Below are positions 6,013-46,942 of a stretch of 64,000 bases of DNA, piece after piece (position 1 is the first letter of the stretch; every line of letters begins with the position of its first letter). A program made the position numbers and the translations under genes. Under the pieces are notes generated by a model that saw only the letters and a program-made list of their open reading frames with translations, had not been told where the DNA came from and ran no database searches. This DNA is from Paludibacteraceae bacterium (GTDB lineage Bacteria > Bacillota_I > Bacilli_A > RFN20 > CAG-826). The stretch is from assembly GCA_963621535.1 (NCBI GenBank), contig CAVFEQ010000005.1, positions 3,800 through 67,799 of the forward strand. The letters run 5' to 3'.

Positions 6013-6164
6013 TGATGTCCTCCCTTAAAACAAACACGAAAATGATAGACGGCATTTTCTTTTTATGAAAAAGAAATTTGCCTAATTTCCCTTGAAACTT
6101 TGACGCGCGCCAAAAAAGATCAGTCCGAACGTTTCTTGAAACTCACCAAACTCTTTGGATTCCT

Positions 6165-7436: not shown

Positions 7437-7487
7437 CCTGTTGGTCTCCTTCAACGGATTATAGCCCCTATTGATACGTTTGGCGAG

Positions 7488-13299: not shown

Positions 13300-13335
13300 G
13301 CCTCATTCACTCACGTCAGCCACAAGTCAAAAATA

Positions 13336-13362
13336 AAAACATCCGCCACAAACGGATTTTTC
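13336..13362 (+). terminator. weak intrinsic terminator candidate
   Basis: ATCCG-ccacaaa-CGGAT followed by TTTTT. The stem is short. Confidence 0.35.
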
Positions 13363-13547
13363 CGGTATTTCCCAACCTAAAAGATTAAAAGCACAAAATA
13401 CGTCTTTAAAACTAACTTTCTATATTTTTGTTCTATTTTTTGATATTTGTAAGCCCTTTTACGCACTAGAGTATTTGTATAAGCAAGGCGAGGCTAAAGC
13501 GCGAGGCGCCAGGCTCCGCCAAAAGGGGATTCCCTGGAGGAAAAAAT

Positions 13548-18280: not shown

Positions 18281-18283
18281 GCC

Positions 18284-19834: not shown

Positions 19835-19851
19835 GGAAGGAGGAAAGAAAT

Positions 19852-22131: not shown

Positions 22132-22163
22132 ACTCACCCCACAAGGGAGAAAGGCGAGTTCCT

Positions 22164-27749: not shown

Positions 27750-27758
27750 AAAACGGGT

Positions 27759-29369: not shown

Positions 29370-29464
29370 GGGAGCGCCTTTCCTTAAGCCGGGGGTATTC
29401 TAAGCCTTTTTACCATAAAAAGCCCCCGAATTCCCTTCGAGGGCCCAGAAAAGAAGGAGGAGAA

Positions 29465-30845: not shown

Positions 30846-31679
30846 ATGTTCAATAAAGCGGATTTCCATGACATCAACCTGCAAAGAAGGAAAAATCCCA
30901 TCCTTTCCTTCAGCTATACCGAGCTAGACGATGAGCCCTCGATCTTCCACGCCCACCAGAACTTTGAGATCATCATCCCTAGAAGCGGCGCGGGGCTCAT
31001 CGTCGGGGTGGCGAGTTCCTTCCCCGTGGAAGAAGGCTGTATCTACGTCATCCCCTCCAACGCCACCCATACGGAGAAGAAATTAGGTAAGGAATCGACC
31101 TTCAAGTATTACGCCTTGAAGACGACCAACGCGATCCGCCTAGAAAGCAACGCCTTCCTCAAAATCAAACTCGAGCCCTCTTTGATGAGAACTTTGCTCA
31201 CTCATCTAAAAGGGGCTTATGACAGCTTCATCCAATATCCCGATGACCCTGTTCTTTCTTATTTGGACGTCCTCTCTTTCTATTTGCTGCTCATCAACAA
31301 GCTCAAGGAGATGGGCTATCAGATCGAAGACGACAAGGACAAGCTCCGCTCCTCCTTCGTCTTCGAGATCCAAAGCTATCTGAATTCCTCTTACCACGAA
31401 GACATCGAGATGAACGCCCTAGCTAAACGCTATGGCATGTCGCGCTCCTCTTTAGAGAAGCGCTTCAAGAAGGAAACGGGCATCACCCCGAAGGAATATC
31501 TTTCTAGACGCCGGCTAGAATCGGCGAAATACCTCCTTTCGACGACCGATTATTCAATCGGGCAAATCGCTTCCCTCTGCGGCTTCTCCACCTCGGCCTA
31601 CTTCATCTACTTCTTCCGCCAGGAGACTGGATCAACCCCCAAGCACTTCCGCGAGCTTTCCTTGTCTTCTGCGAAATAA
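30846..31679 (+). CDS. AraC-family transcriptional regulator (cupin-like sensor plus HTH)
   Basis: 277 aa. The C-terminal region (LAKRYGMSRSSLEKRFKKETGITPKEYLSRRRLESAKYLLSTTDYSIGQIASLCGFSTSAYFIYFFRQETGSTPKHFR) is a textbook AraC double HTH. Confidence 0.85.
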   Translation: MFNKADFHDINLQRRKNPILSFSYTELDDEPSIFHAHQNFEIIIPRSGAGLIVGVASSFPVEEGCIYVIPSNATHTEKKLGKESTFKYYALKTTNAIRLESNAFLKIKLEPSLMRTLLTHLKGAYDSFIQYPDDPVLSYLDVLSFYLLLINKLKEMGYQIEDDKDKLRSSFVFEIQSYLNSSYHEDIEMNALAKRYGMSRSSLEKRFKKETGITPKEYLSRRRLESAKYLLSTTDYSIGQIASLCGFSTSAYFIYFFRQETGSTPKHFRELSLSSAK

Positions 31680-31734
31680 AAATCGCAGAAAAAACCTTTG
31701 CCAATGGCATTTTTTACCCACATTATATGTGGGT

Positions 31735-33117
31735 ATGAAAAATCAAAAGACCCTTTTGCTCGCCTTATCCGCTTCCTTGTTGCTTGTTAGCTGCAATAAC
31801 AGTCAAGGCAAAACCGATTCTTCCACGGAGACGGCTTCAGTCTCTATCGACCCTTCTTATAAGAGCTCGGTGAAGAATTACCTGAAAATCCTGACCAAAA
31901 TAAAGAACTACACCTTGAAGGAAGAAGTCTCTTCCACCGCTTCAAGCGCCAAAAACTCCGCGACCATCTATTACGGCGAGGATTTCTATTACTATGACGC
32001 AAGCTACACTCTCCCCTATGGCTACATCTCCTGCGCGGATGGGGTTTACCGCATCCACGAGAATAGCGGCAAGCTCATCGGCGGCGAGCTTGCTTTAGAC
32101 GAGCAAGGGAGCCCCTACAAGACCCTTTGGAACGACTATTTCTTCTATAGCTTCGCCGATCTAGAAGAAGAGAGCATCGATGCGATCGCTAGCGAAGGCA
32201 AAGAGAAAGTCGCGATCACCGGGAAGAAAAATAGGCTCGCCCTGCTTGATCTGCTTGGCCTAGGCTCTGCCTATTATGGGAGCATCGTCTCCTTTTACGG
32301 CACGGTGAATGACGACGCTTCCCTCTCGCTGAGCCTAAGCGTCAACGACACCTCCTCCGGGGCTTTGATTAGCGTCAAAGCCAGCGTGAGCGCCCTAGGG
32401 TCCACCTTCTGCGGCAAGGTGGAGGAATATCGGGAGAAGAACTCCTACTTCGTGATCGACGAGGATTTCGCTAAAGCCCGCGCCTTGATGAAAAGCAACA
32501 ACTACACCCATTATTACACCGATGAAGAAGATGATGACAAAATCGTCGGCACCGAGATTTTCAACGAGAACTACTATTTCGTGGAATGGGATAGCAGCTA
32601 CGCCGCAAAAATGGCAAGCGAAGGCTCTGCCATCCTCTATAGCACCGGGCTCATCGGCATCCGCAACAAGAAGATCAAGGATACCTCTGGGAACTACCAC
32701 ACCTTAAACGGCAGCTACCTGATCTCCTTAAGCGGCGGCGCTTATTCGGTCAACCTCACGAATTATTACAACGAATCCCCTGATATCCCAAGTGTCTATA
32801 GCTATCCAAGCCTATTGCAGATGTGGGACGAGGTAGAGCTATTCGAAGAAAGCGAAATCGAAGGGATGGACAAAGCCTATGTCACCGAGGACATCACCCT
32901 CATCGAAGACTTCGTCGACATGTTCTTCTTATCGAGCGTCGTCGCTTCCGTCGTCTGCAACGATCTCTCCATCAGCTGGAAAAACCTCGATTCAGAAGAC
33001 GAGAAGATGATTTGCTTCACTTTAGACACCACCGGTGGCTCGTTAAGTTACGAGTTCTACCACTTCGGAAGCACCTTCATCCCCGCGCTCGATCTTTTCC
33101 TAGAAGATCTGGAGTGA
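31735..33117 (+). CDS. lipoprotein, unknown function
   Basis: 460 aa from the ATG at 31735. Lipobox MKNQKTLLLALSASLLLVSC. No motif assigned. It is co-directional with the AraC gene and immediately downstream of it. Confidence 0.65.
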   Translation: MKNQKTLLLALSASLLLVSCNNSQGKTDSSTETASVSIDPSYKSSVKNYLKILTKIKNYTLKEEVSSTASSAKNSATIYYGEDFYYYDASYTLPYGYISCADGVYRIHENSGKLIGGELALDEQGSPYKTLWNDYFFYSFADLEEESIDAIASEGKEKVAITGKKNRLALLDLLGLGSAYYGSIVSFYGTVNDDASLSLSLSVNDTSSGALISVKASVSALGSTFCGKVEEYREKNSYFVIDEDFAKARALMKSNNYTHYYTDEEDDDKIVGTEIFNENYYFVEWDSSYAAKMASEGSAILYSTGLIGIRNKKIKDTSGNYHTLNGSYLISLSGGAYSVNLTNYYNESPDIPSVYSYPSLLQMWDEVELFEESEIEGMDKAYVTEDITLIEDFVDMFFLSSVVASVVCNDLSISWKNLDSEDEKMICFTLDTTGGSLSYEFYHFGSTFIPALDLFLEDLE

Positions 33118-33154
33118 GCCCGCGAAATCTCTTCTATTTCCTGCAGGACACAAG

Positions 33155-33185
33155 AAAAGCTCAGGATCGCTCCTGAGCTTTTTTC
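33155..33185. terminator. bidirectional intrinsic terminator
   Basis: AAAAGCTCAGGA-tcgc-TCCTGAGCTTTTTT. A 9-bp GC-containing stem with a 4-nt loop is flanked by A- and T-runs. It sits between convergent genes ending at 33117 and 33201. Confidence 0.85.
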
Positions 33186-33200
33186 TTGGCTAGAAACGGC

Positions 33201-35882
33201 TCACTCGTCCAAGGTGAACCATTGATATTCGGCGGCGTAATCATCTTCGACGGGATAGCCGATGACGTAATTGTCTTCGCTATCATCCCCGCCAGACCAC
33301 GTGCTTTCATAGACATAGATGCCGATTAGGCCGTAGTCTTCAAGCATATAGACGCCGATGTCGACGCTATTGCTAGCGGAGCGGACGCTTAAGACCATTC
33401 CTCCGCTGTCGCCGATGCCGTAGTTGTAATAGAAGTCGTAGTCGGTCTTCGTGCTCGTGACGGTGACCTTGCCTTTTTTATAGGCCGTGCCATTGATCTC
33501 TTTGCCTTCTTCCGAGGTGAAGCTGATGGTCGCGGGGACGAAGGACCCGTCCATGTAGCGCGGATCGGTCGAGGTAACGCCGTCGCTATTGTAGTCGTGG
33601 GCGGTCCAACTCGTGCCTTCAAGCGAAGAAGGGAGCAAGGAGGCGGTGCCCGGTCTGATTTCAAGGGTGATCGTGGACTTGACCGAGGCATTACGCGCAT
33701 CGGTGACGGTGATGGTCTCGCTTAAGGCCGTCTCGGCGGCGATGGATCTGGCGTCGATCGTCATAATGTAGGCCTGATAGGTCGCGATTTGGTAACTCGT
33801 CGGCTTCACCGTGCTATCCCCCACGGTGATTTTGACCTCCTCATTTGAGCAGGCGACGATGGGTTTGGCGACGCAGTCGATGGGGCTTGCCCAGAGGTAG
33901 ACGTTCATGATCCTTCCGGCTTTGATGGAGACCTTAGAGGAGGTGGGGACATCATCTTCGCCCTCATTCCCATACGCCCAGACGTAATATCCATTCGGGG
34001 CGGGGGCGTCGTCGACGGTGATGCTCGCTTTTTTGGTGACGTCATTGGTCGCGTGGTTCCCGATGGTGACTTCGGTCGTGCCGGAGCCGCAGCCGATCCA
34101 TTCTCTTGGGCGGAACTCGCTCTTGCTGACGATCGAATCATCATCGGTGGCGACGATGCCATATTCCCAGGCGTCTAAGGCGGTAGAAGGGGTATAGGTA
34201 AGCTTCAAGGTCGAGGTGTAGCCGGAAGCGGTATCTTCTTCCACGGTCGGGGTATAGGGATCCCTTCTATCCTCATCGATGATCTCCTTGTATTTGACGT
34301 GGCCCTCTTCTTTGGTTTTGTCGCTATTGGACTTGATGGTGACGCTATCGATGCTGGAAATGAAATAAGGCGTGGTGTCGAAGGAGATATTCGAAGATTT
34401 CGCCGCCCCATAGCCATAGCTCACGCTGCTGCTGTTTTTGATCTCAGGGTCTTTGCCGGTGATCGCGCTGCCGCCATTGGTAGTGTCGCTGTTATTGAAG
34501 GACCAGTTTTCCTTGGTGTAATAGTTCTCGAGATAGGTGACGCTACTTAGCGTGCCGTCGGCGTTGATATTGATGGTGATGTCATATTCATAACGCGTCT
34601 GGACGGCTTCGCTATCCTCATAATTCTTCCAGCTGTGGATAGTGGTCGAGAAGCTGTTGTCGGCGTTTTTGACGCCCGTGAATTTCCTGTCGCAAGCCTT
34701 CAGCTCGTCTTCGACGGTGTAGCCGATGTAATAGCCATATTGGATCTCGGCGTTGATCGAATGCAGCTCATGGCTAGGCATGGCCATGTCGGCTTTGGCC
34801 ATGAAGGGGGTCTTCTGGTAATGGGAGTTCTCGACTTCGTCGACGATCTTGTATTTGCCAGAATAGGCCACGGTGTCCTGGGTTTTCGTCCGATCGACGT
34901 AACCGGCGGTATCCGTCCAGGATTCGACGTAGCTATCCACCACCGTATAGACGTTGTCCTTGATGGACTTATAGACATAGCTCTCCTTGTTGGTGAGTTT
35001 GTCTTTGGCGGTGGCAAAAGACCCATCCTGATAAAGGTCCCAAGTATAGTCGACCTTGCTTCTAGAGCTGCTATAGGTGACGTGATTGAGGTTCCTCACG
35101 TTATAGGCCCCGCCATCGAGCACTTCCCTGCCGGCGAACCAGCCGCAGAAGTACTGAGCGACCTCGCTTTCGCTTTCTAGGGCCTTCAAGATGCCGGTGC
35201 GGTAGATTGAGATCGGCTTCTCCGCGGCGGGGTCGAAGGTGAGCTCATAAGTCGCGTTGCCGCCGAGGCTGATCTTCGTGGTCGCTTTCGATCCGCTTTC
35301 ATAGACGCCGGAGATATAGGCGTAGGAATTATCGAAATTCACGGAGGCGTAGCCATATTCGGCGCTCCCGACGAGGATGAGGAAGGTGGTGTCTTTCTCC
35401 GCGGTGAAACTCCCTTTGAAGGTGCCATCTTCTTGCTTAACCAAAGCGATGGCGACGTCGCCGCTAGTGACGACGTCCCCGTTTACGCTAAGCGAGGCGG
35501 TGATGGCCACGGCGTTGTCCCCCATGACGAAGGTATAGGTTGTGTCGCTAGTTTTCGTGCATTCCTTGCCGTTAGCGTAGAGGGCGTTAAGGACGTAATT
35601 CTCCTTGACTTTCGCAGTGATTGTGATCGTCTCTCCTTTAGGGGCGCTAGTCGCGCTTAAGGCGATATCGACTCCTTCCCCCGTGCGGTCGACGATCGCG
35701 TATTTGGTCACTTTGGCTTCGCTAGAAGAATCGCCTCCATCAATAGAAGAGGTGTCGCTAGAGGGGGTGATGGTTGTCGAATCAGTGCCAGTGGAGTCAA
35801 TGTTGTTGTTATTCGTATTGCATCCTGCAAGGAGCAAAGCGCTAGAGAGGATCAATAAGGTCCTGTTGATGGTTTTTTTCAT
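33201..35882 (-). CDS. large surface lipoprotein (gene 5 of the lipoprotein operon)
   Basis: 893 aa. Lipobox MKKTINRTLLILSSALLLAGC followed by a Ser/Thr/Asp-rich linker. N-terminal divergent InlB-B-repeat-like module (KYAIVDRTGEGVDIALSATSAPKGETITITAKV...YTFVMGDNAV). Ig-like modules occur later. Confidence 0.75.
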   Translation of the reverse strand: MKKTINRTLLILSSALLLAGCNTNNNNIDSTGTDSTTITPSSDTSSIDGGDSSSEAKVTKYAIVDRTGEGVDIALSATSAPKGETITITAKVKENYVLNALYANGKECTKTSDTTYTFVMGDNAVAITASLSVNGDVVTSGDVAIALVKQEDGTFKGSFTAEKDTTFLILVGSAEYGYASVNFDNSYAYISGVYESGSKATTKISLGGNATYELTFDPAAEKPISIYRTGILKALESESEVAQYFCGWFAGREVLDGGAYNVRNLNHVTYSSSRSKVDYTWDLYQDGSFATAKDKLTNKESYVYKSIKDNVYTVVDSYVESWTDTAGYVDRTKTQDTVAYSGKYKIVDEVENSHYQKTPFMAKADMAMPSHELHSINAEIQYGYYIGYTVEDELKACDRKFTGVKNADNSFSTTIHSWKNYEDSEAVQTRYEYDITININADGTLSSVTYLENYYTKENWSFNNSDTTNGGSAITGKDPEIKNSSSVSYGYGAAKSSNISFDTTPYFISSIDSVTIKSNSDKTKEEGHVKYKEIIDEDRRDPYTPTVEEDTASGYTSTLKLTYTPSTALDAWEYGIVATDDDSIVSKSEFRPREWIGCGSGTTEVTIGNHATNDVTKKASITVDDAPAPNGYYVWAYGNEGEDDVPTSSKVSIKAGRIMNVYLWASPIDCVAKPIVACSNEEVKITVGDSTVKPTSYQIATYQAYIMTIDARSIAAETALSETITVTDARNASVKSTITLEIRPGTASLLPSSLEGTSWTAHDYNSDGVTSTDPRYMDGSFVPATISFTSEEGKEINGTAYKKGKVTVTSTKTDYDFYYNYGIGDSGGMVLSVRSASNSVDIGVYMLEDYGLIGIYVYESTWSGGDDSEDNYVIGYPVEDDYAAEYQWFTLDE

Positions 35883-35897
35883 GTTCTTTTCCTTTCC

Positions 35898-36707
35898 TTA
35901 GATTGCACTGGAAGGCTCTAAGATGCCGAGTAGCCCGTTGCGCGTATGGGCGTGGAGCCTATCGCCGGTGTTCCAGACGGCGAAGTAGTCGAAGACGAAG
36001 TCGCTGATCGTCCAATTGCTCACCTTGTAGATGTACCAGTAGGCGGCGTCTTCAGCGATGGAACTATATTCCTGGTTCCATTCGTAGGTGAAGGATTGGC
36101 TAGCGAGGCTGACTCCGCCAGATTCAGTCCCGGAGATATAGCCTGTGCCTCCTTCGACGAACCACATCGTGAGATCGCCGGTCGCGCTTTCAAACCCGGG
36201 CACGGTCGAGAAGAAATCTTCTTCGACAAGGGAAGAGCTCACCTCTTCCGCGGTGAGCTTCTTCTTCACCGTGACGAGTTTTCTGAAGTGGGCGATGCCG
36301 TCTCCGTCCTCGATGATGAGATGGGCCTTCCCCTGCTTATGGCTAAGCAAGGTCCAACTGGTCCCTGACTCGCTCACCTCCGCGGTGAGGACGTTCTCGT
36401 TGTCGCTTCTGACCACCACTTTCCCCGTGGGGTTGTTACTAAGAGAGAAGGAGATCGGATAAGAGGAGTGCCCGGCTAGAGACATCCCGATGCTGATGTC
36501 ATTAAGGAAGCCAGAGATCGATACGCTGATGCCCGAGCTGATGTCGCTAAGCTCCTCAATCGGCGTTGTGTCGACATCATCATCGATCGAAGAGGAGGCC
36601 TCGCCGCTAGAGGGGGAGGGATCCGTTGATTCCACTGGGCCGCTTTGCCCAGAGCAGCCGCTTAATAAGGCTGCTGAAGCAAGCAATAAGAGAATGTTTT
36701 TCTTCAT
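35898..36707 (-). CDS. small surface lipoprotein (gene 4 of the lipoprotein operon)
   Basis: 269 aa. Lipobox MKKNILLLLASAALLSGC, acidic Ser-rich linker, one Big_2-like segment (VVVRSDNENVLTAEVSESGTSWTLLSHKQGKAHLII). Confidence 0.7.
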   Translation of the reverse strand: MKKNILLLLASAALLSGCSGQSGPVESTDPSPSSGEASSSIDDDVDTTPIEELSDISSGISVSISGFLNDISIGMSLAGHSSYPISFSLSNNPTGKVVVRSDNENVLTAEVSESGTSWTLLSHKQGKAHLIIEDGDGIAHFRKLVTVKKKLTAEEVSSSLVEEDFFSTVPGFESATGDLTMWFVEGGTGYISGTESGGVSLASQSFTYEWNQEYSSIAEDAAYWYIYKVSNWTISDFVFDYFAVWNTGDRLHAHTRNGLLGILEPSSAI

Positions 36708-36720
36708 GATTTTCCTTTCT

Positions 36721-39003
36721 TTATGAGACGAGGCTTAGCTTCGTGTCATTGAAGTAAGCCCCGTTAACCCCGCCTTTGGCCGTGAAGTAGTCGCCAGAAG
36801 CGTTGTAAGTAAGAATAATGGAGGCGCCGCTGCTCTTTTCAGGCGTATTGGCGCAGTTATAGAACATTGTTTTAATGGTGTTCCCGTTTTCCACCGTGTA
36901 TTCGGTTTCCGCCTCGTAATACTTTCTCCCGCCGATATACTCAATCCAAGTCAAGGTGTTCCCTTCGCTAGAGAAAGCGACTTCATAGGTATTAGACCAA
37001 CTGGTATCGGAATCGGAGGAACTATATTGAGGAATCCCTTTGTAGGATTTCCCCATCCAAGGCATCGAGGCCTCTTCTTTTTTGTTCACGGTGAAGGACA
37101 TGGTTGTTTTATCGATACTCCCCGTCACGACCGCGTCGTTGCTATTGAGAGTGATGCTCACCCCGTCTTCAGCAACGCTGTAGCCGTAGGAGGCGCCATC
37201 ATAACTGGCGCCGCCCGAGCCATTAAGATATAGGCTTTTGCCCTCGCTGTCGAGATAAGTCCCGTACTCTTCGCCAAGAGCGGCGCGGTTTTTCGCCCCG
37301 CCCTCATCGAGATAGCCGACGCTAAGGAGCGTGGTCTCCCCTTCTTTGACACGGAAGATCGCCTTCTCTTCGTTAACGAACTCCCCTTCGAGCATCTCCA
37401 CCTCGACTCCGAAGTGGATGGTGTTCTTCGTATAGTCCCCTTTCGTGCGCTCAACGAGAACGTTCTCTATAGTGGAAGAGCCCTCATAGAAGCAAGCTAA
37501 GGCGTAGGTGACCTCGCCGAGCTTGAACTGGGTGGCTTTTAGGGAATATTCGCCATCTTCCTTCTCTTTCTTCAAAGACACGGTGAGGTAATTAGAGGAA
37601 TAAACCCCTCCTTCCAGAAAGGAATCGTAGACGAGGAGGTTTTTCGAATAGGCGATGCTAGGCAAGGAATAGCTCCCGGCTTTCTCTAGTTTGATGAGCC
37701 CAGTGCCTTCATTGTCCTCATAGGAGGAGAGCGAATAATCGGTATAAACGCTTGATTCGCTGCGCGCGTAAACCAAGTCGCCGCTCTCTAGGATCTTCAT
37801 GGACCCTTTCTCTTCGAAGGCGGAGTAATCGCTAGAAGGGCCATAGCTGAAATCGAGGTTAGCGTATTCCCCGATGAAGGGAGCGTCCTTATAGGCATGA
37901 AGGTCATATTCAGTGACCTTGATTGTGACCTTCTCGCTAGCCATAGGGTAGGTGAAGGCATATAAGCCGGTCTCTTCCTCGTAGCAGGAAGAGAGGTCTT
38001 TGCTCGTTTGGCTTCCGGTAGAGGAAGCGTAGGAGCAGACAATCGTCTTCACGCCATAATCCTCGCTTGAAGGAGTGGCTTTCAAATAGACGGTGCTATA
38101 AGGGATATAGGCGTCCTTGATCTGCTCTTTGCAGGCAGAATCAGCGAACAAAGACAGGCTAATATGGGCGGAATCCAAAAGCTCGAAGGCGATGGACTTA
38201 TAAGAATAAGAAAGGGAGACACTGGTGTCTTCCGCGCCCATAAAGAAGGAATAAGTCTCGCTGCCTTCCTTCAAGGAAGCGGCAACCCCATTCACCGACA
38301 CCCCCGTAAGCTCATAGTTCGCCACGGAGGCATTGAAGCTAAGCAACACTTCCGCGCCGAACTCGGCGGCTTTATAGGAAGAGGAAGAGGTCTCCCCTTC
38401 TTCATCCGCCTCGCTTTCCTCGGTAATGGTGTCTAAAGCGACATAGGCAGAAGAGCCGACTTTCTTTTGGGTCACGCTTTTAAGGAAGCCGCCAGCATCA
38501 TTGACGCTGAGCTTATAGGATTTCCTTTTCGTGGATACTTTGATGATGACCCCTCTTCTAGGCATCGAAAAGGAATAATCCCCATCGAAGCCCGCGAGAA
38601 GATCAAGCTCAGCGGTCCCCGCTTTCGCAGACACTTCTCCAAGAGAGAAGCCATTAAGCACAGTAACGGTGAAATGAACCTCGCTCCCCGCGGTGGCTTT
38701 TTCCGTTTTCAAGGTGACTTTCGCTCCTTCATCGCTTTCGGCGACGATGTCGTATTCCTTGACCGCGGGCTCTGAAGAATCATAGCTCTCCGAGCTGGAT
38801 TCTTCGGATACATCCGAGGAAACCGTAGCTTTGGAATCAGAGCTAGGGTCAACGATCGACTCGGCGGATTCCTCCGCGCTAGAAAAGGATTCCGGCGCTA
38901 AGCTAGATTCCGAGCCCGAAGATGGCCCTTCAGACGAAACGGTGCAGCCAGGCAAAGCAAGCAAGGCGGAAGCCACTAATATCACTAACGCATTCTTTTT
39001 CAT
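36721..39003 (-). CDS. large surface lipoprotein (gene 3 of the lipoprotein operon)
   Basis: 760 aa. Lipobox MKKNALVILVASALLALPGC followed by a Ser/Glu-rich linker. N-terminal divergent InlB-B-repeat-like modules (EYDIVAESDEGAKVTLKTEKATAGSEVHFTVTV...YSFSMPRRGV). Confidence 0.75.
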   Translation of the reverse strand: MKKNALVILVASALLALPGCTVSSEGPSSGSESSLAPESFSSAEESAESIVDPSSDSKATVSSDVSEESSSESYDSSEPAVKEYDIVAESDEGAKVTLKTEKATAGSEVHFTVTVLNGFSLGEVSAKAGTAELDLLAGFDGDYSFSMPRRGVIIKVSTKRKSYKLSVNDAGGFLKSVTQKKVGSSAYVALDTITEESEADEEGETSSSSYKAAEFGAEVLLSFNASVANYELTGVSVNGVAASLKEGSETYSFFMGAEDTSVSLSYSYKSIAFELLDSAHISLSLFADSACKEQIKDAYIPYSTVYLKATPSSEDYGVKTIVCSYASSTGSQTSKDLSSCYEEETGLYAFTYPMASEKVTIKVTEYDLHAYKDAPFIGEYANLDFSYGPSSDYSAFEEKGSMKILESGDLVYARSESSVYTDYSLSSYEDNEGTGLIKLEKAGSYSLPSIAYSKNLLVYDSFLEGGVYSSNYLTVSLKKEKEDGEYSLKATQFKLGEVTYALACFYEGSSTIENVLVERTKGDYTKNTIHFGVEVEMLEGEFVNEEKAIFRVKEGETTLLSVGYLDEGGAKNRAALGEEYGTYLDSEGKSLYLNGSGGASYDGASYGYSVAEDGVSITLNSNDAVVTGSIDKTTMSFTVNKKEEASMPWMGKSYKGIPQYSSSDSDTSWSNTYEVAFSSEGNTLTWIEYIGGRKYYEAETEYTVENGNTIKTMFYNCANTPEKSSGASIILTYNASGDYFTAKGGVNGAYFNDTKLSLVS

Positions 39004-39039
39004 TGATTCCTCTCTTTATTATCAAATTTCGATACCCCT

Positions 39040-39085
39040 AAAACAAACAAAGAACTAGCCCGAAGAAAAACTCGGGCTAGTTCTT
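39040..39085 (-). terminator. intrinsic terminator/attenuator hairpin inside the lipoprotein operon
   Basis: On the minus strand: AAGAACTAGCCCGAG-tttttct-TCGGGCTAGTTCTT followed by TGTTTGTTTT. The stem is about 14 bp. It lies in the 92-nt gap between genes 2 and 3. Confidence 0.7.
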
Positions 39086-39095
39086 ACGGATGAGA

Positions 39096-42000
39096 TTAAG
39101 CAACCGTGAATGTCACGTTGCGAATGTAAGCGGCATCGAGGGTGCCACTGGTTCCACTATCCTTCGTATAAAGGAAAGTGATAATGTCTCCTGCCGCGAC
39201 AGTGATTGGTTCGGCTGTGTGCCAGGTCAAATTGTCAAAAGACGTAACACCAGCATCACCCTCCGTAGATCCATTCACAACAACGGAAGTAGACGTCCCG
39301 CTTGTGTGGGTGATATAGAGATAATCATATCTGCAATTGCTTTCGCCGGAGAATGTCCACTCAAACGAGAAGGTCCCCGCTTTGGTGAAATGGTAGATTA
39401 AAGCAGATTTGCCGTAGCTAGAATCGCATTTTCCGCTTTGATACACACCGGCATGATCGCTCATCTCCGACCACCCTTTTGTATCGTCAACGCCAGTCGG
39501 GGTGCTCGTTCTATCGGAATAAGAACCGGTGCCGCTCGTTGTTGTGGTGTAATAATCCGGCAGATCCTCTTGGGCAACCGCGACGCTTACGGAAGTCTTC
39601 TCGGAAACGCCATTGATTTGGCAGTAGAAGAGATAATCTCCGGAGGCGAAGATGAGCGCATCGGAAGCCTCTGTCCCACTCAAGGTAACGATCGGGGTCG
39701 TGGTATCCGTGGAGCTATAGATCTTGACGGTCGTATTCTCATCAGGAAGAGTGAACGTGAACTTCTTCGAGACGGCGAAGGTTATCTTGCTCCAGTAGCC
39801 ATCAGAAGTGCCATCGACGCTCACGGAGGTAACGCCATCATTGATGGTGGCTCCGCTATCCGCCACATCGGCGCTGCTGCCAGTGGTCTTTTCCTTAATG
39901 CCGAATTTGATGGTATCCGCAGTCGATCCGACGGCAGGAACCTTCAGTTTCAGATAGTAGGTAGTGCCAGAGGTGAAAGCGTATTCAGCATAAGCGCTAT
40001 AGGGCACGCCTAAGGTTTCAGCGTGAGCGCTCTTGTCGTCGTCATTATTAACGATCGCAGTTAGCGCAGTCGAGCTTGTGGAGGAATCGTAAACGTCGCT
40101 AATGGCGCTGTCAGGACCATTTCCAGTAGCTGCCGAGTCTCCTTTGGTCGCCTGGAAGAACAATTTGAACGTGCCAGTCGAGGTGGCGGTGTATTTGAAG
40201 AAAAGCGTGCTGTAACTAGAAGCAGGCGCATAGCTTGTGAGGTCTGCTAGTCCGTCCGAACCCAAGTTAAGGGAATAGGCAGTGTCTGCGGTTTCCCCGG
40301 TTTCAACGGTATCAGCTCTAGAGAACTTGACCGTCTCGCTAGCGTCTTGGCCACTAACTTTGACGATATAAGAAACGCCGGAAGTGGTTTTGTATACGAT
40401 TTTGCCGTTCGAAGCGGTCTTGAGGCTCTTCCCCGTCGTGTCTAGAAGCGCGATAGTGGTCTTACTAGAGACGCTAGAGACATCGATGATGAGATAGTTA
40501 TCCGCGGTCGAAGCAATCCGGTAGAACTTGCCTTTGGTCGAGCCAACAAGCGTGGTATTCTCGCCAAGAGTCGGAGTGATGTCCTCCGGGAGGTTGATCG
40601 AATCGCCGACTGCGATTTTGACGATGGAGAAGGTGAAATCCTTCCAGCTTGTAATCTTGGTCTTGCTGTCATAATCCCCCCAACCAGAGGAACTGCCCGA
40701 GATGCTGCCATCGTAACCAACGAAAACGGTGTAGGTGCCTTCATTCAAAGTAACCTCGCTCGCGTCAAGGGTCTTGCCTTTGGAGGCGCTCTTCAAAGTG
40801 GCACCGCTCACGGGGTTGCCGCTTTCATCATAGATGATCACGGTCTGTCCATAAGAAGAATAGCCAGCGCCTGTGGTCACGCCATATAGCCCGTCTTCGC
40901 TCGCGGTGAAGGTGTAATAAGCACCTGCGAGATATTTGTCAGAGGAGGTGTAAATCTGGGTGACCGTCTTCGTTTCGCCTAGGGTATAGCTAAGCGCTTT
41001 GTCTTTGCTATAGCCTTCGGGAGTGTCTTCGATCGAGAAGGAGAAATACTTGTCCGCAGCAACATCAGAGGTGGCGTAGTTTGCCTTAATTTCAACGTAG
41101 TAAGTGTGGCCGGATTCAACATCAAAGCCGAAGGAAGAAGACCCGGTGCCGGAACTGGCGGCGATCTCCGTCGTCGGGGCAGAAGCGTCCACTACCACAA
41201 TGTTGGTGAAGTTATAAGCCTTGTCGTCCTTTTTGAAGATGACCGTCTCGCTGGTTTCAGCGACGTACTTATAAAGGAGCGGTTGCGATGAGCTGATGAA
41301 ATTCGGGGTCACAGAGACGCCTTTGCTCATCGCTATGGCTTCTGAAGCGGAGTCATTGGCGAAGGTGAAGAACTTCATCGCGATCGTGCCATAGTTGTAC
41401 TGTTTTAGATTGCTGTAATAGGCACGGGTCATAGAGGCTTTGATGTAATAGGTCTCGCCAGGGGCGGCATAGATGCGGACGGAGCCAGAATCGCTCGCGC
41501 CGTATTGGACGATCTTGCCGCTCTTCACCGTCCAAGAAGATTCCGTGGAAAGGGGGTTCTCGGTGTCGGAAACGCCATAAACGGTGATGGCGCCATCAAC
41601 GCTAGAGGTGCAGCTTGAGGTAGTACTGTCTTTGACGGAATTATCTTCGTCGACGGAGAAGTAATACCAATCGCTCCCACTTGCAGTCTCAGGAACCGTG
41701 AACTTGATGTATTCGAATTCCTTGCCGGGATAAAGCGAGGCGGAGAAGCTGCCAGCGGAGCTTGGGCTCATTTCCAAGGGGTTAGCAAAGCTATAGCCCG
41801 CGCCGGGCTCGCCATAAACGGCATAAAGATCGAGGTCGGTTGTGACAAGCGAATTGAAATCGAAAGCGTTCGCCCCCGCTTCATCCGTATACCAGCCCTT
41901 GAATTCTTTCTCGGCGAGGTAAGGATTGCCGGGATCAGCGACGGTGCGGTTATTTCTCGCCCTGACCTCGACATCGCCAGTGACATCCCCGAGTTTGCCC

Positions 42001-43190
42001 GATCCATAATGGAAGGTGACGGTGCTATAGGTTGTGTCGGCGCAGACGACATCAAGATAATAGAAGCCGCTGGAGGCGTTGTCTTCGCTCTTCATCGCTT
42101 CCCATTCCGCTTCCGTTCCTTCAAAGACGATCGATTCGGGTTCGCTGCTTGAAGAGAAGAATTTATTCGGAATGGATTTGACGTTTTTGGAAATGACGAT
42201 GTTCGTCGCGCAGAAACCGGTGTCATTGGCATTGACCAAATTCGGGGTTTCATAGATGAGCTTGCTGACCTTATAGGAGCCTTTGAAAGCCCCTGAGGCA
42301 ATCGAGACCAGGCTCGAAGGGACGTTCATCTCGGCGACAGCCACATAATTGAAAGCATATGCTTTGATGGTCGTGATGGTGTTAGGCAAAGTCAGTTTGT
42401 TGATGGTTCTGCTAAAAGCCTTCGCCTCGATCGTTGTTATCGTGCCGACTTTTACGGCGTAGCAATCGCTCACCGAATAATAAGTGGAAGGGACGTAAAG
42501 ATCATCACCGTTGTTATAAGAGGCGGTCAAAGAATAGTCGGAATCGGTATCGCTGATCGGCGTGGCAGTGAACCTGCTGTCCCAACCGGCAACGCCGTTA
42601 GCGTTAACGATGAATTCTTTGGAGTCCTCCGCTAAGGAAGTGGCGGAGAATTTCACGATGATCGTGTCGTAATAATGGGCAACGGGGACGTTGCGGAGAG
42701 TGTAGATGATGTAGTACTTCTTCGTGAAGCTCTCTTCAATCGTGCCGTTCCAGCCGATGCTGCTTGTATCGGATAAAGAGGAATAGACCTCGGTGACGTT
42801 GAAGGTTTTCTCCTCTTTGATGACCGCTTCCTCTTCGCCCGCCGTATTTTTGTCGGTGCGGCTAGAGACGACTTTCGAGGTGACGCTTGCGCTGGTCAAG
42901 TTCTTGTAATCGTCCACCACCGCGATGATGCGCACAGACATCGTCGAGGCGGTCTTGTCGAGGATCTCGTAGCCAAAAGCGCTCGAGACATTGACCTGGG
43001 CGGTCGGGGTAACGGCGCTATGGAGAGAGACTTTCGTCCCGACTTCATCCGCGGTCTCCACCGCATCATCGATGACGCTGGTATCCGGAATCTCATCCTT
43101 GTCGGAGACATCCGGAGTCAAATTGCAGCCCGTGAGGACCATGCCCGCGACGGCCGCAAGAGAGAGAATCAGTATATTTTGCTTTTTCAT
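39096..43190 (-). CDS. giant surface lipoprotein (gene 2): BspA-type LRR, Listeria-Bacteroides repeat, about six PPC-like modules, C-terminal jelly-roll-like domain
   Basis: 1364 aa from the ATG at 43190, which has an AAGGAGG SD. Lipobox MKKQNILILSLAAVAGMVLTGC. LRR segment TITTIEAKAFSRTINKLTLPNTITTIKAYAFNY...SLVSIASGAFKG. Flg_new-like segment VTFHYGSGKL...EFKGWYTDEAGANAFDFNSLVTTDLDLYAVY. Repeated pairs such as DWYYFSV with GETYYIKAS. Confidence 0.8.
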   Translation of the reverse strand: MKKQNILILSLAAVAGMVLTGCNLTPDVSDKDEIPDTSVIDDAVETADEVGTKVSLHSAVTPTAQVNVSSAFGYEILDKTASTMSVRIIAVVDDYKNLTSASVTSKVVSSRTDKNTAGEEEAVIKEEKTFNVTEVYSSLSDTSSIGWNGTIEESFTKKYYIIYTLRNVPVAHYYDTIIVKFSATSLAEDSKEFIVNANGVAGWDSRFTATPISDTDSDYSLTASYNNGDDLYVPSTYYSVSDCYAVKVGTITTIEAKAFSRTINKLTLPNTITTIKAYAFNYVAVAEMNVPSSLVSIASGAFKGSYKVSKLIYETPNLVNANDTGFCATNIVISKNVKSIPNKFFSSSSEPESIVFEGTEAEWEAMKSEDNASSGFYYLDVVCADTTYSTVTFHYGSGKLGDVTGDVEVRARNNRTVADPGNPYLAEKEFKGWYTDEAGANAFDFNSLVTTDLDLYAVYGEPGAGYSFANPLEMSPSSAGSFSASLYPGKEFEYIKFTVPETASGSDWYYFSVDEDNSVKDSTTSSCTSSVDGAITVYGVSDTENPLSTESSWTVKSGKIVQYGASDSGSVRIYAAPGETYYIKASMTRAYYSNLKQYNYGTIAMKFFTFANDSASEAIAMSKGVSVTPNFISSSQPLLYKYVAETSETVIFKKDDKAYNFTNIVVVDASAPTTEIAASSGTGSSSFGFDVESGHTYYVEIKANYATSDVAADKYFSFSIEDTPEGYSKDKALSYTLGETKTVTQIYTSSDKYLAGAYYTFTASEDGLYGVTTGAGYSSYGQTVIIYDESGNPVSGATLKSASKGKTLDASEVTLNEGTYTVFVGYDGSISGSSSGWGDYDSKTKITSWKDFTFSIVKIAVGDSINLPEDITPTLGENTTLVGSTKGKFYRIASTADNYLIIDVSSVSSKTTIALLDTTGKSLKTASNGKIVYKTTSGVSYIVKVSGQDASETVKFSRADTVETGETADTAYSLNLGSDGLADLTSYAPASSYSTLFFKYTATSTGTFKLFFQATKGDSAATGNGPDSAISDVYDSSTSSTALTAIVNNDDDKSAHAETLGVPYSAYAEYAFTSGTTYYLKLKVPAVGSTADTIKFGIKEKTTGSSADVADSGATINDGVTSVSVDGTSDGYWSKITFAVSKKFTFTLPDENTTVKIYSSTDTTTPIVTLSGTEASDALIFASGDYLFYCQINGVSEKTSVSVAVAQEDLPDYYTTTTSGTGSYSDRTSTPTGVDDTKGWSEMSDHAGVYQSGKCDSSYGKSALIYHFTKAGTFSFEWTFSGESNCRYDYLYITHTSGTSTSVVVNGSTEGDAGVTSFDNLTWHTAEPITVAAGDIITFLYTKDSGTSGTLDAAYIRNVTFTVA

Positions 43191-43204
43191 TGTCCTTGCC
43201 TCCT

Positions 43205-45472
43205 TTATTCGCCCCAATTGTCGTCGATGCCGGAATCTCCTCCGGCTTCGCCTTCATGGCTCACGTCGTAGCCATGCACGGAAACAGGGGACTCGCTCGC
43301 CTCTTCGATGGCGATGGCAACGGCCTTGCTCGCGTCGTCTTCGCCGAAGCTGACCCCGAAGCTCACCGTGTTGCTAACGTAATCGGAAGTGATGTACATG
43401 GCGTTGATTTTTCCAAGCAAGCCTAAGCAAGAAGCAAAGCTGGCGATCGGGGAATCTTTGCCGAGGTCTTCGTTTGCGAAATCAACCGCATAAACGTCAA
43501 CGTGGTTTTCGCCGTCGGTCTCTACCCATTTGAGGTTAGGATCGGATAAGATGGCGTCCCAGGAGAAATAATCATCGAGCGAGAGATCCGCCCCGTCCTT
43601 GGTGTTGTAGGCGTATTCTTCTTCGACCGAGTCATAAGAGAAGGGATAAACCTTGTCATCGACGCCCACCATGCCGGATTTATCGTTTTCACAATAAACC
43701 ATGGTGTCGGCGATATAGGTGCCAGAATAAGAGTCGTTCACGGTCTGTTTCGGCGCTACGCCATAAGCGGAGGTCAGAGACTTCACGCCATCGTTAACCT
43801 CTACGTTGATGACGCCGAAGAGCATTTGTTTACCGCCTTTGATCTCGGCGACATAGGACTTACCCTCTTCAAGCTCGACGTCAAAGCAGAAGTCGTACTT
43901 ATATAGGCAGTACCCATCGGCGTCTCCGCCTTTTGCAAAATCATCATTGGAGGTATCGCCGTTAACATCCGTCATGCCCGTCTCGCTGACCTGACCGTCT
44001 TCATCGACTTCATATAGACCCCAAATTTTAGCGTCGAAGCTATCGGAGTTATTTGAGAAGATGGAATAGGTCCCCGCTTTAGAAACGGTGAATTTGATGT
44101 AGCGTTTTTCGCTGGTGGTAGTCCCCATATCTTCGGCACTGAGGCTCATCACGGGGATATCAGCAGTCGGCGCGGTGCCGCTATAGGTAGAGGTGACTTT
44201 GCTATCTGTTTTGAACGTAAAAGCAGTGTCTTTGGTTTTGCCGTCATTGATCACGTCAACTTCATAAGTACGGGTGAGGCTAGCCTTATAAGAAGAAGGC
44301 AGGTTCGTCACTTCATCGGCTTTGATAACAGGATCGGTGACCTTGATCACGACGCTGTCAGATTTCGTCCCGCAGGTAGCGGTGATCGTGGCTTCGCCTT
44401 GTTTGACCCCGGTCACGACGCCATCATCGCCGACGGTCGCGATATTTTCATCGCTCGAAGACCAGGTGATATCCTTGAAAGTCACATCATCTGGGGAAAC
44501 GCTCGCGCTGAGTGTGATGCTGCGATGCAAAGGAAGATCACCGACGTCAGACTTGTTCTCAATGGTGACTCCATCGGCTTCAACGTTAGAGACGGTGACA
44601 TCCAAAGTGGCGTCAACCCCGCCGAAGCTAACCTTTACCTTCACTGTCCCAGCCTTAACGCCAACAAGGGTGGCGCTCGCGCCGTTCCCGGTTAAAGTTG
44701 CAAGTTCAGAATTGTCGATCGACCAAACGTAATCGCTGCCCACGATATTCGAGGATTTCGCTTCCAAAGCGATTTCTTTTCCCACGTAGACTGTCTTTGG
44801 GCCTTCGATGACAAGCCCCTGCTCAGGGACGGTGATGGACAGGCTGCTCTCCACGCCGCCGTAAGCCACTTTGATGGTCGCCGAGCCCGCTTTAAGCCCG
44901 GTGACGGTCGCGTTCGCGCCGTCTCCGGCAACGGAAGCGACGGTTTCGTCGGAAGAGGTCCAGACGAAGGTGGAGCCTTCAACCTTGATGTTAGCTGCCT
45001 TCGCCTCAAGGGCGATGCTCGCCCCGATAAGAACGGTGGTATCCCCATCGATGATCAGACTTTGTTCAGGAACGGTGACCGCAAAAAAGGCGCTCTTGCC
45101 GGCTGCGCTAGCAACGATGTTCGCGCTGCCCGCTTTCAAGGCGGTAATCGTCACTTTGATGATCAATGATCCGTCGGGATCGCTGATCTGGTCATCGCAG
45201 CTAACCCTAGCGACATCAGGATCGCTAGAAACGATGCTGACCTCGCTAGCAAGCGCGCCGCTGATTTTTGCTTCAATGTCTAAGCTTTCCCCGACGAGAA
45301 TCGAGCCGGAGGTCTTGCCAGTGGAATCTGCAAGCTGGACGGAGGTGATGACCTCTACGCTGCTAGAAGTGGAATCAGAGGTTTCTGAGGAATCCTCCTG
45401 CGGATTGTTGCCGCCGCAGCCCACTAAAAGCAGGGAGAGAGCCAAAGGAATAAGGATTTTTGTTTTTTTCAT
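43205..45472 (-). CDS. surface lipoprotein (gene 1): four Big_2-like Ig domains plus a PPC-like module
   Basis: 755 aa. Lipobox MKKTKILIPLALSLLLVGC. Four repeats of the type ...FVWTSSDETVASVAGDGANATVTGLKAGSATIKVAYGG.... Later segments KRYIKFTVSKAGTYSIFS and GKSYVAEIKGG. Confidence 0.8.
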   Translation of the reverse strand: MKKTKILIPLALSLLLVGCGGNNPQEDSSETSDSTSSSVEVITSVQLADSTGKTSGSILVGESLDIEAKISGALASEVSIVSSDPDVARVSCDDQISDPDGSLIIKVTITALKAGSANIVASAAGKSAFFAVTVPEQSLIIDGDTTVLIGASIALEAKAANIKVEGSTFVWTSSDETVASVAGDGANATVTGLKAGSATIKVAYGGVESSLSITVPEQGLVIEGPKTVYVGKEIALEAKSSNIVGSDYVWSIDNSELATLTGNGASATLVGVKAGTVKVKVSFGGVDATLDVTVSNVEADGVTIENKSDVGDLPLHRSITLSASVSPDDVTFKDITWSSSDENIATVGDDGVVTGVKQGEATITATCGTKSDSVVIKVTDPVIKADEVTNLPSSYKASLTRTYEVDVINDGKTKDTAFTFKTDSKVTSTYSGTAPTADIPVMSLSAEDMGTTTSEKRYIKFTVSKAGTYSIFSNNSDSFDAKIWGLYEVDEDGQVSETGMTDVNGDTSNDDFAKGGDADGYCLYKYDFCFDVELEEGKSYVAEIKGGKQMLFGVINVEVNDGVKSLTSAYGVAPKQTVNDSYSGTYIADTMVYCENDKSGMVGVDDKVYPFSYDSVEEEYAYNTKDGADLSLDDYFSWDAILSDPNLKWVETDGENHVDVYAVDFANEDLGKDSPIASFASCLGLLGKINAMYITSDYVSNTVSFGVSFGEDDASKAVAIAIEEASESPVSVHGYDVSHEGEAGGDSGIDDNWGE

Positions 45473-45939
45473 TGTTTGTCTTAATCTCTAAAGCCTTTCA
45501 AAGGGAGAGTATCAAGGCGCTCGAAAAATAATCAATAGGTTTTTTCAACGAAAATAAACACGGTAACGGGGTTTTAAGCAGGCAGGGATTCAACGCCCCG
45601 TCTTATAGGCTTCCGGCCGAGCAAAACCCCTTATTCGACCAGCCAGGAAAGCAAGTTGTATTCGCTTGAAAGATAGACGTTACACGTTTGAGCTCCAATT
45701 TTAGGCGTGGGAGCCAAGCCGATTACAGGTATAAAAGGGCAGGGATTTAAGACCCCATCCCTCTTTTATGTCAAATGTTCTCAATGATTACCCAATAATT
45801 GGACATTTCATGAGAATTATTACTTCAGTATCAGGGACAGCCTTCAGCCTTATTAAGAGGCGACGGCCACGGCTACTGATGCGGCTGACTTTTCATATAA
45901 AAATTGCTCGACGTAGAGAAATCCGATTGCTTTCGCGAC

Positions 45940-45976
45940 GTTATCGGTTAGTTTATTTGTTTCTTTTTGTATAATG
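45940..45976 (+). promoter_or_regulatory. candidate promoter of the deacetylase gene
   Basis: Perfect TATAAT at 45970-45975 with TG immediately 5' of it. A TTAGTT-like -35 element lies about 17 nt upstream, and the ATG at 46007 lies 32 nt downstream. The surrounding sequence is AT-rich. Confidence 0.45.
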
Positions 45977-46006
45977 TAACCAAAATATTCCGACCGGAGC
46001 GGTATT

Positions 46007-46865: not shown

Positions 46866-46942
46866 TGGCGCCCTGGGAGGGACTCGGACCCGCAACCGAC
46901 GGCTTCGAAGGCCGTTGCTCTATCCAGTTGAGCTACCAGGAC
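46866..46942 (-). tRNA. tRNA-Arg (anticodon TCG) with a non-canonical T-arm
   Basis: 77 nt. Acceptor GTCCTGG/CCAGGGC, D-arm GCTCAACTGGATAGAGC, anticodon loop CTTCGAA, encoded CCA. The T-loop reads TCCGAGT (C where U55 is expected) and the T-stem has a C-T mismatch. Confidence 0.7.

Follow-up and report, generated by a model that had tools for sequence, protein, structure and literature searches.

Gene content and organization of the lipoprotein locus

The analysed stretch of 64,000 nucleotides from contig CAVFEQ010000005.1 (the window) contains six neighbouring genes for predicted lipoproteins, three of which (g4, g5 and n462) form a conserved module that is the main subject of this study. 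Five of the six lie consecutively on the minus strand: g1 (43205-45472; 755 amino acids (aa), lipobox LVGC), g2 (39096-43190; 1364 aa when read from the ATG that gives MKKQNIL, with the open frame running on to a TTG at 43217; lipobox LTGC), g3 (36721-39003; 760 aa, lipobox LPGC), g4 (35898-36707; 269 aa, lipobox LSGC) and g5 (33201-35882; 893 aa, lipobox LAGC). A preliminary description of this region had reported five consecutive minus-strand open reading frames (ORFs), and all were found where it had placed them. The sixth gene, n462 (31729-33117, plus strand; 462 aa, lipobox LVSC), lies just past a terminator-like hairpin, convergent with g5 and outside the region flagged in that description, and had been overlooked. 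As detailed below, g4, g5 and n462 are core members of the locus, g3 is a frequent accessory, and g1 and g2 are clade-specific accessories.

Each of the five minus-strand ORFs has the MKK start, hydrophobic stretch, lipobox and linkers rich in Ser, Thr, Asp and Glu that had been described, and the encoded proteins are Arg-poor with net charges of -21 to -68. A lipobox criterion combining a positively charged n-region, an h-region and the pattern [LVI][ASTVI][GAS]C identifies g1-g5 and n462 alike. The lipobox Cys is invariant in a 20-sequence alignment of the g5 family and in the g4 and n462 family alignments, and is conserved in at least 90% of 53 divergent g5 relatives.

The intergenic gaps within g1-g5 are 14, 92, 13 and 15 nt, in agreement with the preliminary description. 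The strong hairpin noted in the 92-nt gap between g2 and g3 (39050-39085, minus strand) was likewise recovered as a perfect 15-bp stem (39085-39050) with a 6-nt loop and a predicted free energy of -30 kcal/mol for the gap. This stem is followed by TGTTTGTTTT, a T-rich tail, and is likely a terminator or attenuator. A second hairpin, at approximately 33151-33186 between the convergent g5 and n462, is flanked by an A-run on one side and a T-run on the other and has the bidirectional terminator-like character previously ascribed to it. Upstream of g1, a non-coding region of 534 bp (45473-46006), also as reported, separates the array from a divergent polysaccharide deacetylase gene and is presumed to contain the promoter.

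A three-lipoprotein core conserved across related genomes

When genomes, one for each species, were scanned with the g5 family profile, 49 loci were obtained, 35 of which (L008-L042) went beyond a domain-level match. The six window proteins, and then their family profiles, were compared to all ORFs of the fetched loci, and neighbours within 8 kb were clustered. Loci were recovered by two peptide patterns, so that distant family members are under-sampled, and spacing figures use the first in-frame start codons, a few of which are over-extended; the arrangements in L035 and L039 were corrected manually.

Members of the g5 family were present in 40 of 43 loci, followed by g4 (39/43) and n462 (36/43). 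The g3 family was found in 22 of 43, g2-like genes in 11 of 43 and g1-like genes in 8 of 43. In all 39 informative loci g4 directly precedes g5, the gap between them being 2-43 nt (median 17 nt), and this arrangement persists down to 25% identity. The position of the third gene relative to this pair varies: n462 is convergent downstream of g4-g5 in 26 loci, divergent upstream in three, and on the same strand, abutting or overlapping g4-g5, in eight, where it follows g5 (L026, L035, L037, L038 and L039) or precedes g4 (L028, L034 and L041). Its retention as a neighbour through at least four arrangements argues for a functional linkage to g4-g5.

Only L002/L016, L009, L010 and L017, which make up the closest clade, have the full g1-g5 order. 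Where g5 identity is 56-64% (L011-L015 and L020), g3-g4-g5 are present without g1-g2 and with other genes upstream, and more distant relatives retain only g4-g5 and n462. In rate of divergence g4 and g5 are the slowest and are matched to one another, with paired identities of 88/80, 63/64, 61/61, 56/56 and 37/38%, and divergence then rises in the order n462, g3, g2 and g1, the last falling to 37% identity where g5 retains 79%. The old core of the locus is thus a three-lipoprotein module of g4, g5 and n462, and the region is a composite rather than a single five-gene machine. In the clade of the window this core gained g3 directly upstream and a separate, adhesin-type g1-g2 pair further upstream. 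The five-gene set proposed in the preliminary description is therefore not borne out as a unit, since its whole order occurs in the closest clade only and n462, outside its coordinates, belongs to the unit instead. Homologues of g3-g4-g5 are nonetheless syntenic rather than scattered, scatter being what that description had named as evidence against a conserved set.

No family besides these six occurs in more than eight loci. The remaining neighbours, comprising an unknown protein, ABC_tran (7 loci), AAA_14/DUF4143 (6), DegV (5) and HTH_3 (5), are too sporadic for ABC_tran, AAA_14/DUF4143, DegV or HTH_3 to be accepted as conserved functional partners. Each related assembly yielded one locus in the scan.

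Individual loci carry additional genes. The distant relative L006 contains an extra small-plus-large gene pair of 294 aa and 975 aa (3623-7436, plus strand) upstream of g4-g5 that has no detectable similarity to either family, and an 853-aa gene after g5 (12598-15159, plus strand) that shares the InlB-like domain only; these may represent very divergent paralogous modules. Genes for AAA_14/DUF4143 ATPases occur near the module in several genomes, among them L002 (19883-21094) and L004 (6281-7579 and 14754-16083), where one of them sits between g5 and n462, and they are also found elsewhere in the window (6165-7454, minus strand). Mobility, or just a high number of such genes in this lineage, may account for them.

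Core proteins g5, g4 and n462

g5 consists of an N-terminal InlB-B-repeat-like domain followed by a chain of beta-sandwiches, with an alpha/beta region at approximately residues 235-500. Support for the InlB-B-repeat-like modules of the preliminary description is mixed: the window protein matches Flg_new_2 (PF18998) with 20.5 bits, under the cut-off of 23.6, while 30 of 53 family members match it at E<=0.01 (best 4e-9). Across these 53 divergent relatives Pfam otherwise recognizes only Big_2, in N-terminally extended members, and residues ~135-893 of g5 are without a Pfam model. An exhaustive HMMER search with g5 returned 5,330 matches, and a word-indexed search returned 25 clusters. Among the best 150 of the 5,330 matches to the g5 profile (50%-identity representatives), ~110 are full-length, and since nearly all of these measure 800-1,020 aa, the architecture of g5 appears constrained. 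The other matches, numbering in the thousands, are restricted to profile positions 60-140, which correspond to the InlB-B-repeat-like domain.

The AlphaFold2 model of g5 (predicted local distance difference test score (pLDDT) 82, predicted template-modelling score (pTM) 0.63) is almost wholly beta, with helices at residues 359-385. Foldseek searches of the PDB with this model returned strings of Ig domains only, including the S-layer protein EA1, cadherins, RAGE and SGBP-B, with template-modelling (TM) scores of ~0.1. Residues 58-628 are more conserved than residues 629-893, and the N-terminal anchor would place the conserved part close to the membrane and the variable part distal to it. The conserved positions are mostly aromatic residues or Gly, include one motif (PxTALDxW[EQ]YG, residues 565-575) and upon inspection presented no active-site-like pattern. 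A zincin motif was considered and rejected, as the 'SHELH' near residue 371 represents HExH rather than HExxH and only one His is conserved. PDB profile searches with 20- and 56-sequence profiles identified nothing beyond signal peptides, and tblastn searches of phage and plasmid sequences with g5 gave no match.

In the g4 family alignment, the lipobox with its invariant Cys18 is followed by a linker and a C-terminal beta-rich domain. Residues ~95-150 of g4 resemble a Big_2-like Ig segment when this alignment is read by eye, and comparison of the g4 family to Pfam and the PDB gave no match beyond the signal peptide.

The predicted structure of n462 (AlphaFold2; pLDDT 82.9, pTM 0.70) contains two alpha/beta halves, each composed of a helix, long antiparallel strands and further helices. 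The best specific Foldseek matches were LolA of several bacteria, LolB, RseB, the ependymin-related protein EPDR1 and the two-barrel protein BFA1, with approximately one half of n462 covered. Matches to LolA reached probabilities of 0.91-0.99 (0.99 for 1iwl) at modest target TM scores of 0.3-0.41 and a root-mean-square deviation (rmsd) of 7-11 Å. These matches would place at least one half of n462 in the LolA-like class of open half-barrels. We tentatively describe n462 as a double LolA-like lipoprotein, on modest structural scores and without sequence support, and regard this as a weak lead for hydrophobic cargo. n462 and 15 family members had no match to LolA, LolB, LolA_like or any other Pfam family, PDB sequence and profile searches found nothing beyond the signal peptide, and a profile-profile comparison of the two halves (E 0.004, probability 3.6%) supported no relation between them. 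A Foldseek search of viral structures yielded nothing at E<=0.001. A word-indexed database search identified 12-13 clusters, all of them unnamed. Aromatic and hydrophobic side chains dominate among the invariant residues of the family.

n462 begins 49 nt after a gene for an AraC-family regulator (30846-31679, also plus strand), with which it may be co-transcribed. Only the closest relatives (L001 and L010) share this pairing.

Accessory proteins g1, g2 and g3

The domains recognized by eye in g1 and g2 were largely recovered by profile searches. g1 contains the four Big_2 Ig domains that had been proposed: Pfam PF02368 matches in three stretches with 82.9 bits against a cut-off of 22.8, self-comparison resolves four repeats at residues ~57-380, and Big_2 domains in the PDB were also matched. 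No family could be assigned to its C-terminal half. In g2, both the BspA-type leucine-rich repeat (LRR_5, PF13306; 48.0 bits against a cut-off of 27.7, residues 252-357) and the Flg_new repeat (PF09479; 40.8 bits against a cut-off of 27, residues 390-458) were found as described; these are also the only precomputed Pfam domains of its orthologues, and the PDB matches are 4gt6 and the InlB B-repeat 2y5p. The seven or so PPC-like beta-sandwiches claimed for g2 fared less well, as no Pfam PPC match was obtained at E<=0.1. Repetition as such received weak support: BLAST self-comparison detected no repeats in g2, and self-comparison of the family-alignment profile revealed weak ones with a period of ~125-130 aa over residues ~470-1100 (best pair 89%, E 2e-6), so that g2 likely carries repeated modules of ~125 aa.

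g3 matches the g5 family profile (E 2e-17), probably through its N-terminal part, and its C-terminal region of ~480 aa has no assignment. Neither g3 nor g4 has a Pfam match, NCBIfam adds only matches at the level of signal peptides for the five proteins, and PDB sequence and profile searches with g3 found nothing beyond the signal peptide. The possibility that g3 is a hidden fourth universal member was rejected, as an iterative hidden Markov model (HMM) of its specific C-terminal region converges at 22 of 43 loci, which identifies g3 as a frequent accessory. In three distant loci the g3 family is doubled in tandem on the strand opposite to g4-g5 (L035, 4067-9526; L037, 4359-8963; L038, 4167-8738; all minus strand), and the second copy aligns with no more than the initial ~280 positions of the g3-specific profile.

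Searches for enzymes and known families

In agreement with the preliminary description, no catalytic, transporter or regulator domain was identified in g1-g5 by Pfam, NCBIfam, PADLOC, PHROGs or PDB sequence searches. A relaxed Pfam scan (E<=5) of ten isolated domain slices gave nothing meaningful. The six proteins contain neither DUF31 nor any peptidase family at E<=0.1, and no counterpart was identified of the Mycoplasma MIB-MIP pair, in which an immunoglobulin-binding protein and a DUF31-type serine protease are encoded in tandem. Structure models cover g5 and n462; sequence searches cover g3, g4 and those parts of g1 and g2 that have no assignment. A role in anti-phage defence was rejected, with no PADLOC hit and with PHROGs matches limited to Ig and LRR domains. 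Paralogy among the five proteins was also rejected, as neither BLASTP nor profile-profile comparison of trimmed domains detected any, and the weak cross-matches between family profiles are limited to signal peptides and linkers.

The g4, g5 and n462 families are unnamed and have neither a Pfam model nor a sequence relative in the PDB, and the earlier view that the locus matches no named system therefore stands. Public sources and the literature provided no name for any of the proteins, and literature on RF39 lipoproteins consisted only of papers on blood lipoproteins. The predicted lipoboxes, the binding-type domains and the failure to find an enzyme uphold the description of these gene products as membrane-tethered proteins of the binding or scaffold type.

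Transcription units

The stem-loop after g2 is kept in all four relatives that carry g1-g2 (L002, L009, L010 and L017), with stems that are altered in sequence yet still pair, which speaks for selection on the hairpin structure. The T-rich tail behind it is present in the window, L009 and L010 and absent in L002 and L017. Beyond the hairpin, a weak promoter-like match (TTGTTT, 17 nt, GATAAT) was noted by eye and falls under the scan threshold. Because the hairpin is conserved and relatives with g3-g4-g5 lack g1-g2, two units appear plausible from the sequence, one of g1-g2 ending at a terminator or attenuator and a second of g3-g4-g5, with possible read-through between them. The single co-transcribed operon of the preliminary description is thus doubtful, the conserved g2 hairpin resembling an intrinsic terminator in the window. 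Hairpins comparable to that of the window also occupy the g5/n462 gap in L002, L009, L012 and L023.

The non-coding region upstream of g1 contains a 22-nt direct repeat, GGCAGGGATTYAASRCCCCRTC, with copies at 45581-45602 and 45738-45759 (157 nt apart). Two matches occur in the window, as compared to 0.08 expected by chance, and none was found in any of the fetched loci. The copies may be operator sites or the remnant of a small repeat.

Other genes in the window

Upstream of the array, a single tRNA gene (46869-46942, minus strand) is flanked by the polysaccharide deacetylase gene and by a small MarR-like gene that lies upstream of feoB. On the other side of the module, the interval 13548-30736 contains large genes with weak or no assignments among rhamnosidase-like and GH2-like genes. 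Four of these ORFs (13548-15125, 19831-22131, 22164-23345 and 29465-30736) have no Pfam match, and a fifth (18284-19834) encodes a lipoprotein with a weak match to DUF4434. Together these genes may form a cluster for glycan degradation whose enzymes include unclassified ones.

Host lineage and distribution

Bacteria of RF39, RFN20 and related orders are common in the guts of humans and animals. To our knowledge none has been cultured, and the interactions of their reduced, thin-walled or wall-less cells with the environment are almost undescribed. The core trio is restricted to uncultured, gut-associated Bacilli carrying the labels Mollicutes, Bacilli, Candidatus Enteromonas and Erysipelotrichaceae. 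The 35 loci L008-L042 derive from gut metagenome-assembled genomes (MAGs) titled uncultured Mollicutes, Bacilli, Firmicutes, Erysipelotrichaceae, Candidatus Enteromonas or Candidatus Alectryobacillus, and were recovered from humans, horse, chicken, yak and other ruminants. Some 'cleanbin' MAGs among L008-L020 are titled Bacteroides uniformis, Parasutterella excrementihominis, Prevotella sp., Hallerella sp., Sodaliphilus sp. or Lachnospiraceae, which suggests wrong labels or chimeric bins.

RF39, RFN20 and ML615J-28 are uncultured orders placed among the Mycoplasmatales, Acholeplasmatales and Erysipelotrichales and predicted to have thin walls or to be deficient in peptidoglycan; RFN20 and ML615J-28 are also without sortases (PMC10868615). 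With a thin or missing wall and without sortases, lipid anchoring is the expected route for surface display.

A putative membrane-anchored binding complex

We consider it slightly better than an even proposition that g4, g5 and n462 form a non-enzymatic, membrane-anchored binding complex to which faster-evolving adhesin-type proteins have been added. In such a complex, all six proteins would be held by lipid anchors on the outside of the cell membrane, in a cell with a thin wall or none. g4 and g5, produced in a fixed ratio from their tightly spaced genes, would probably form a heteromer, with residues 58-628 of g5 serving as a membrane-proximal rigid stalk and docking platform and residues 629-893 facing outward. 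n462 would be the third partner, each of its open half-barrels holding either a stretch of a partner protein or a ligand of hydrophobic nature, and g1, g2 and g3 would contribute additional binding modules that evolve faster, as expected for exposed binding proteins. The assembly would function by binding rather than catalysis, serving attachment or the capture of a ligand. The dedicated multi-protein surface assembly envisaged in the preliminary description is in this respect retained for the trio, on grounds of gene linkage, and abandoned for the five-gene set.

Several points weigh against this proposal. The case for a complex is drawn from the linkage of genes, and surface exposure and lipidation are predictions. 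n462 is absent from the fetched DNA of ~3 loci with room for it (L021, L029 and L031), and its LolA-like assignment has modest scores (target TM 0.3-0.41, rmsd 7-11 Å) and no sequence support. An enzyme fold may be hidden in g3, g4 or the C-terminal parts of g1 and g2. Furthermore, the order-level lineage was deduced from how related MAGs are titled, and several of these titles are clearly wrong.

Among the alternatives, the scavenging of hydrophobic nutrients is the one that fares best, although we regard it as unlikely. n462 would carry lipids, sterols or other hydrophobic molecules taken from gut contents, with g4-g5 as an outward capture or docking platform, in functional analogy to P116 of Mycoplasma pneumoniae or to mycobacterial lipoproteins of the LprG/LppX type. 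The similarity of n462 to the fold class of LolA, LolB, EPDR1 and RseB, members of which bind acyl chains or lipids, and the mainly aromatic and hydrophobic nature of its invariant residues are consistent with such a role, as are the reduced genomes of this Mycoplasmatales-related lineage (PMC10868615) and the existence in such bacteria of P116, a dedicated surface protein that extracts lipids (PMC10023570). A gene for DegV, a fatty-acid-binding family, adjoins the module in five loci from ~3 species. Against these observations stand the modest fold match of n462, the absence of P116 from the 50 best Foldseek matches of g5, and the lack of any lipid-metabolism or transporter gene consistently linked across the loci. 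Furthermore, Gram-positive LolA-like lipoproteins may act purely by protein binding, as does GerS of C. difficile (bioRxiv 10.1101/2025.01.13.632879). Since LolA, LolB and LprG bind acyl chains and GerS binds a protein, a LolA-like fold does not decide between a ligand and a protein partner. In its stronger form, in which the trio would be a previously unrecognised machine that extracts and passes on lipids or sterols, with a double LolA-like lipoprotein as carrier and a long stalk of Ig domains as capture arm, and an independent invention of the role of P116 in Mycoplasma pneumoniae, we find the idea quite unlikely.

The neighbourhood of the module in the window raises the question of glycan capture, with the lipoproteins acting like the glycan-binding proteins of Bacteroides polysaccharide utilization loci (PULs) and feeding nearby glycosidases under the adjacent AraC-family regulator (30846-31679). 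Its neighbours here do include genes for hexuronate catabolism as well as rhamnosidase-like and GH2-like genes (23335-29369), Bacteroides ovatus SGBP-B (6e9b) is among the fold matches of g5 (E 1.7e-3), and Big_2 domains often accompany carbohydrate-active proteins. This setting of glycosidases and AraC-family regulator is limited to the closest relatives (3 loci), however, and elsewhere the module adjoins genes for MgtC, a Na/H exchanger, LysR, an energy-coupling factor (ECF) transporter, thioredoxin and ABC exporters. No carbohydrate-binding module (CBM) family was detected in Pfam scans, the SGBP-B match is to a generic Ig string (TM 0.09-0.16), and neither a SusC/SusD pair nor a glycosidase with a sugar transporter recurs beside the module in the 43 loci. 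We therefore consider glycan capture improbable.

We likewise give little credence to the possibility that no assembly exists and that the genes encode independent surface lipoproteins, adhesins or antigens each acting alone, that are neighbours by descent. The six proteins share no detectable domains beyond signal peptides, linkers and the InlB-like module, g1 and g2 were gained and lost independently of the core, and a terminator-like hairpin splits the array, all as would be expected under this explanation. It does not readily account for the 2-43 nt gaps between g4 and g5 in 39 of 39 informative loci, which hold down to 25% identity, nor for their matched rates of divergence, and the retention of n462 through its several arrangements is hard to explain without functional coupling.

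An S-layer-like coat, in which g5 and its partners would tile the surface as a protective lattice in place of a reduced wall and which the preliminary description had also entertained, is very improbable and without specific support: the top Foldseek match of g5 is the Bacillus anthracis S-layer protein EA1 (8opr, E 1e-6, probability 0.96), the proteins are acidic and Ser/Thr-rich like many S-layer proteins, and the lineage is predicted to be thin-walled or wall-less, but the TM score to EA1 of 0.10-0.12 indicates that this match reflects the chain of Ig-like domains only, no SLH, CWB2 or other wall-anchoring domain was found by Pfam, and a lipid anchor with long disordered linkers would be unusual for S-layer attachment.

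As a set of three co-inherited lipoprotein families, the trio represents a concrete and testable candidate for a lineage-defining surface structure in RF39/RFN20-type gut bacteria, and it gives database curators three new protein families. Were the LolA-like partner to carry lipid, this would hint at a route by which these organisms acquire membrane components; if the trio were an ordinary adhesin set, its value would lie mainly in annotation. No surprising mechanism has been demonstrated, but the finding is a solid one and provides a handle on the surface biology of RF39/RFN20-type bacteria.

Comparison with known systems

The locus resembles the lipoprotein-adhesin clusters of Mollicutes and other low-G+C Gram-positive bacteria, with which it shares lipobox anchoring, acidic low-complexity linkers, tandem co-oriented genes, Big_2 domains, a BspA-type LRR and a Listeria-Bacteroides repeat, the absence of enzyme domains and a host-associated, reduced-genome lineage. 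It differs from them in that its core families g4, g5 and n462 have no Pfam model, PDB relative or name. Mycoplasma lipoprotein families are typically multi-copy and size- and phase-variable, whereas here one locus per assembly was found in the scan and length is strongly conserved.

With the LolA/LolB fold class, n462 appears to share halves composed of a helix and a long antiparallel sheet, and like LolB, LprG and GerS it is a predicted lipoprotein. In contrast to that class, it has no LolA, LolB or LolA_like sequence similarity and would carry the fold twice, in tandem, within a single chain. Unlike the Lol system, the module belongs to a putatively monoderm host without an outer membrane, as judged from the MAG labels Bacilli and Mollicutes, and g4 and g5 are unlike any Lol component.

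P116 is comparable by analogy only, as a large surface protein of a wall-less, lipid-dependent relative within the Bacillota that functions by binding without ATP or catalysis (PMC10023570; PMC12487902). It has its own distinct fold, forms a homodimer and does not appear in the top 50 Foldseek matches of g5, and no sequence relation was found. The SGBP-B and SusE/F-like proteins of Bacteroides resemble g5 as lipid-anchored chains of Ig-like beta-sandwiches that project a binding domain, and 6e9b is among its matches; they differ in that here SusC/SusD and a conserved glycosidase linkage are lacking, the host appears monoderm and the match is to a generic Ig string. Taken together, clusters of lipid-anchored, non-enzymatic surface proteins are of a known kind, and what appears to be new is a deeply conserved trio, including a putative double LolA-like partner, in an uncultured lineage.

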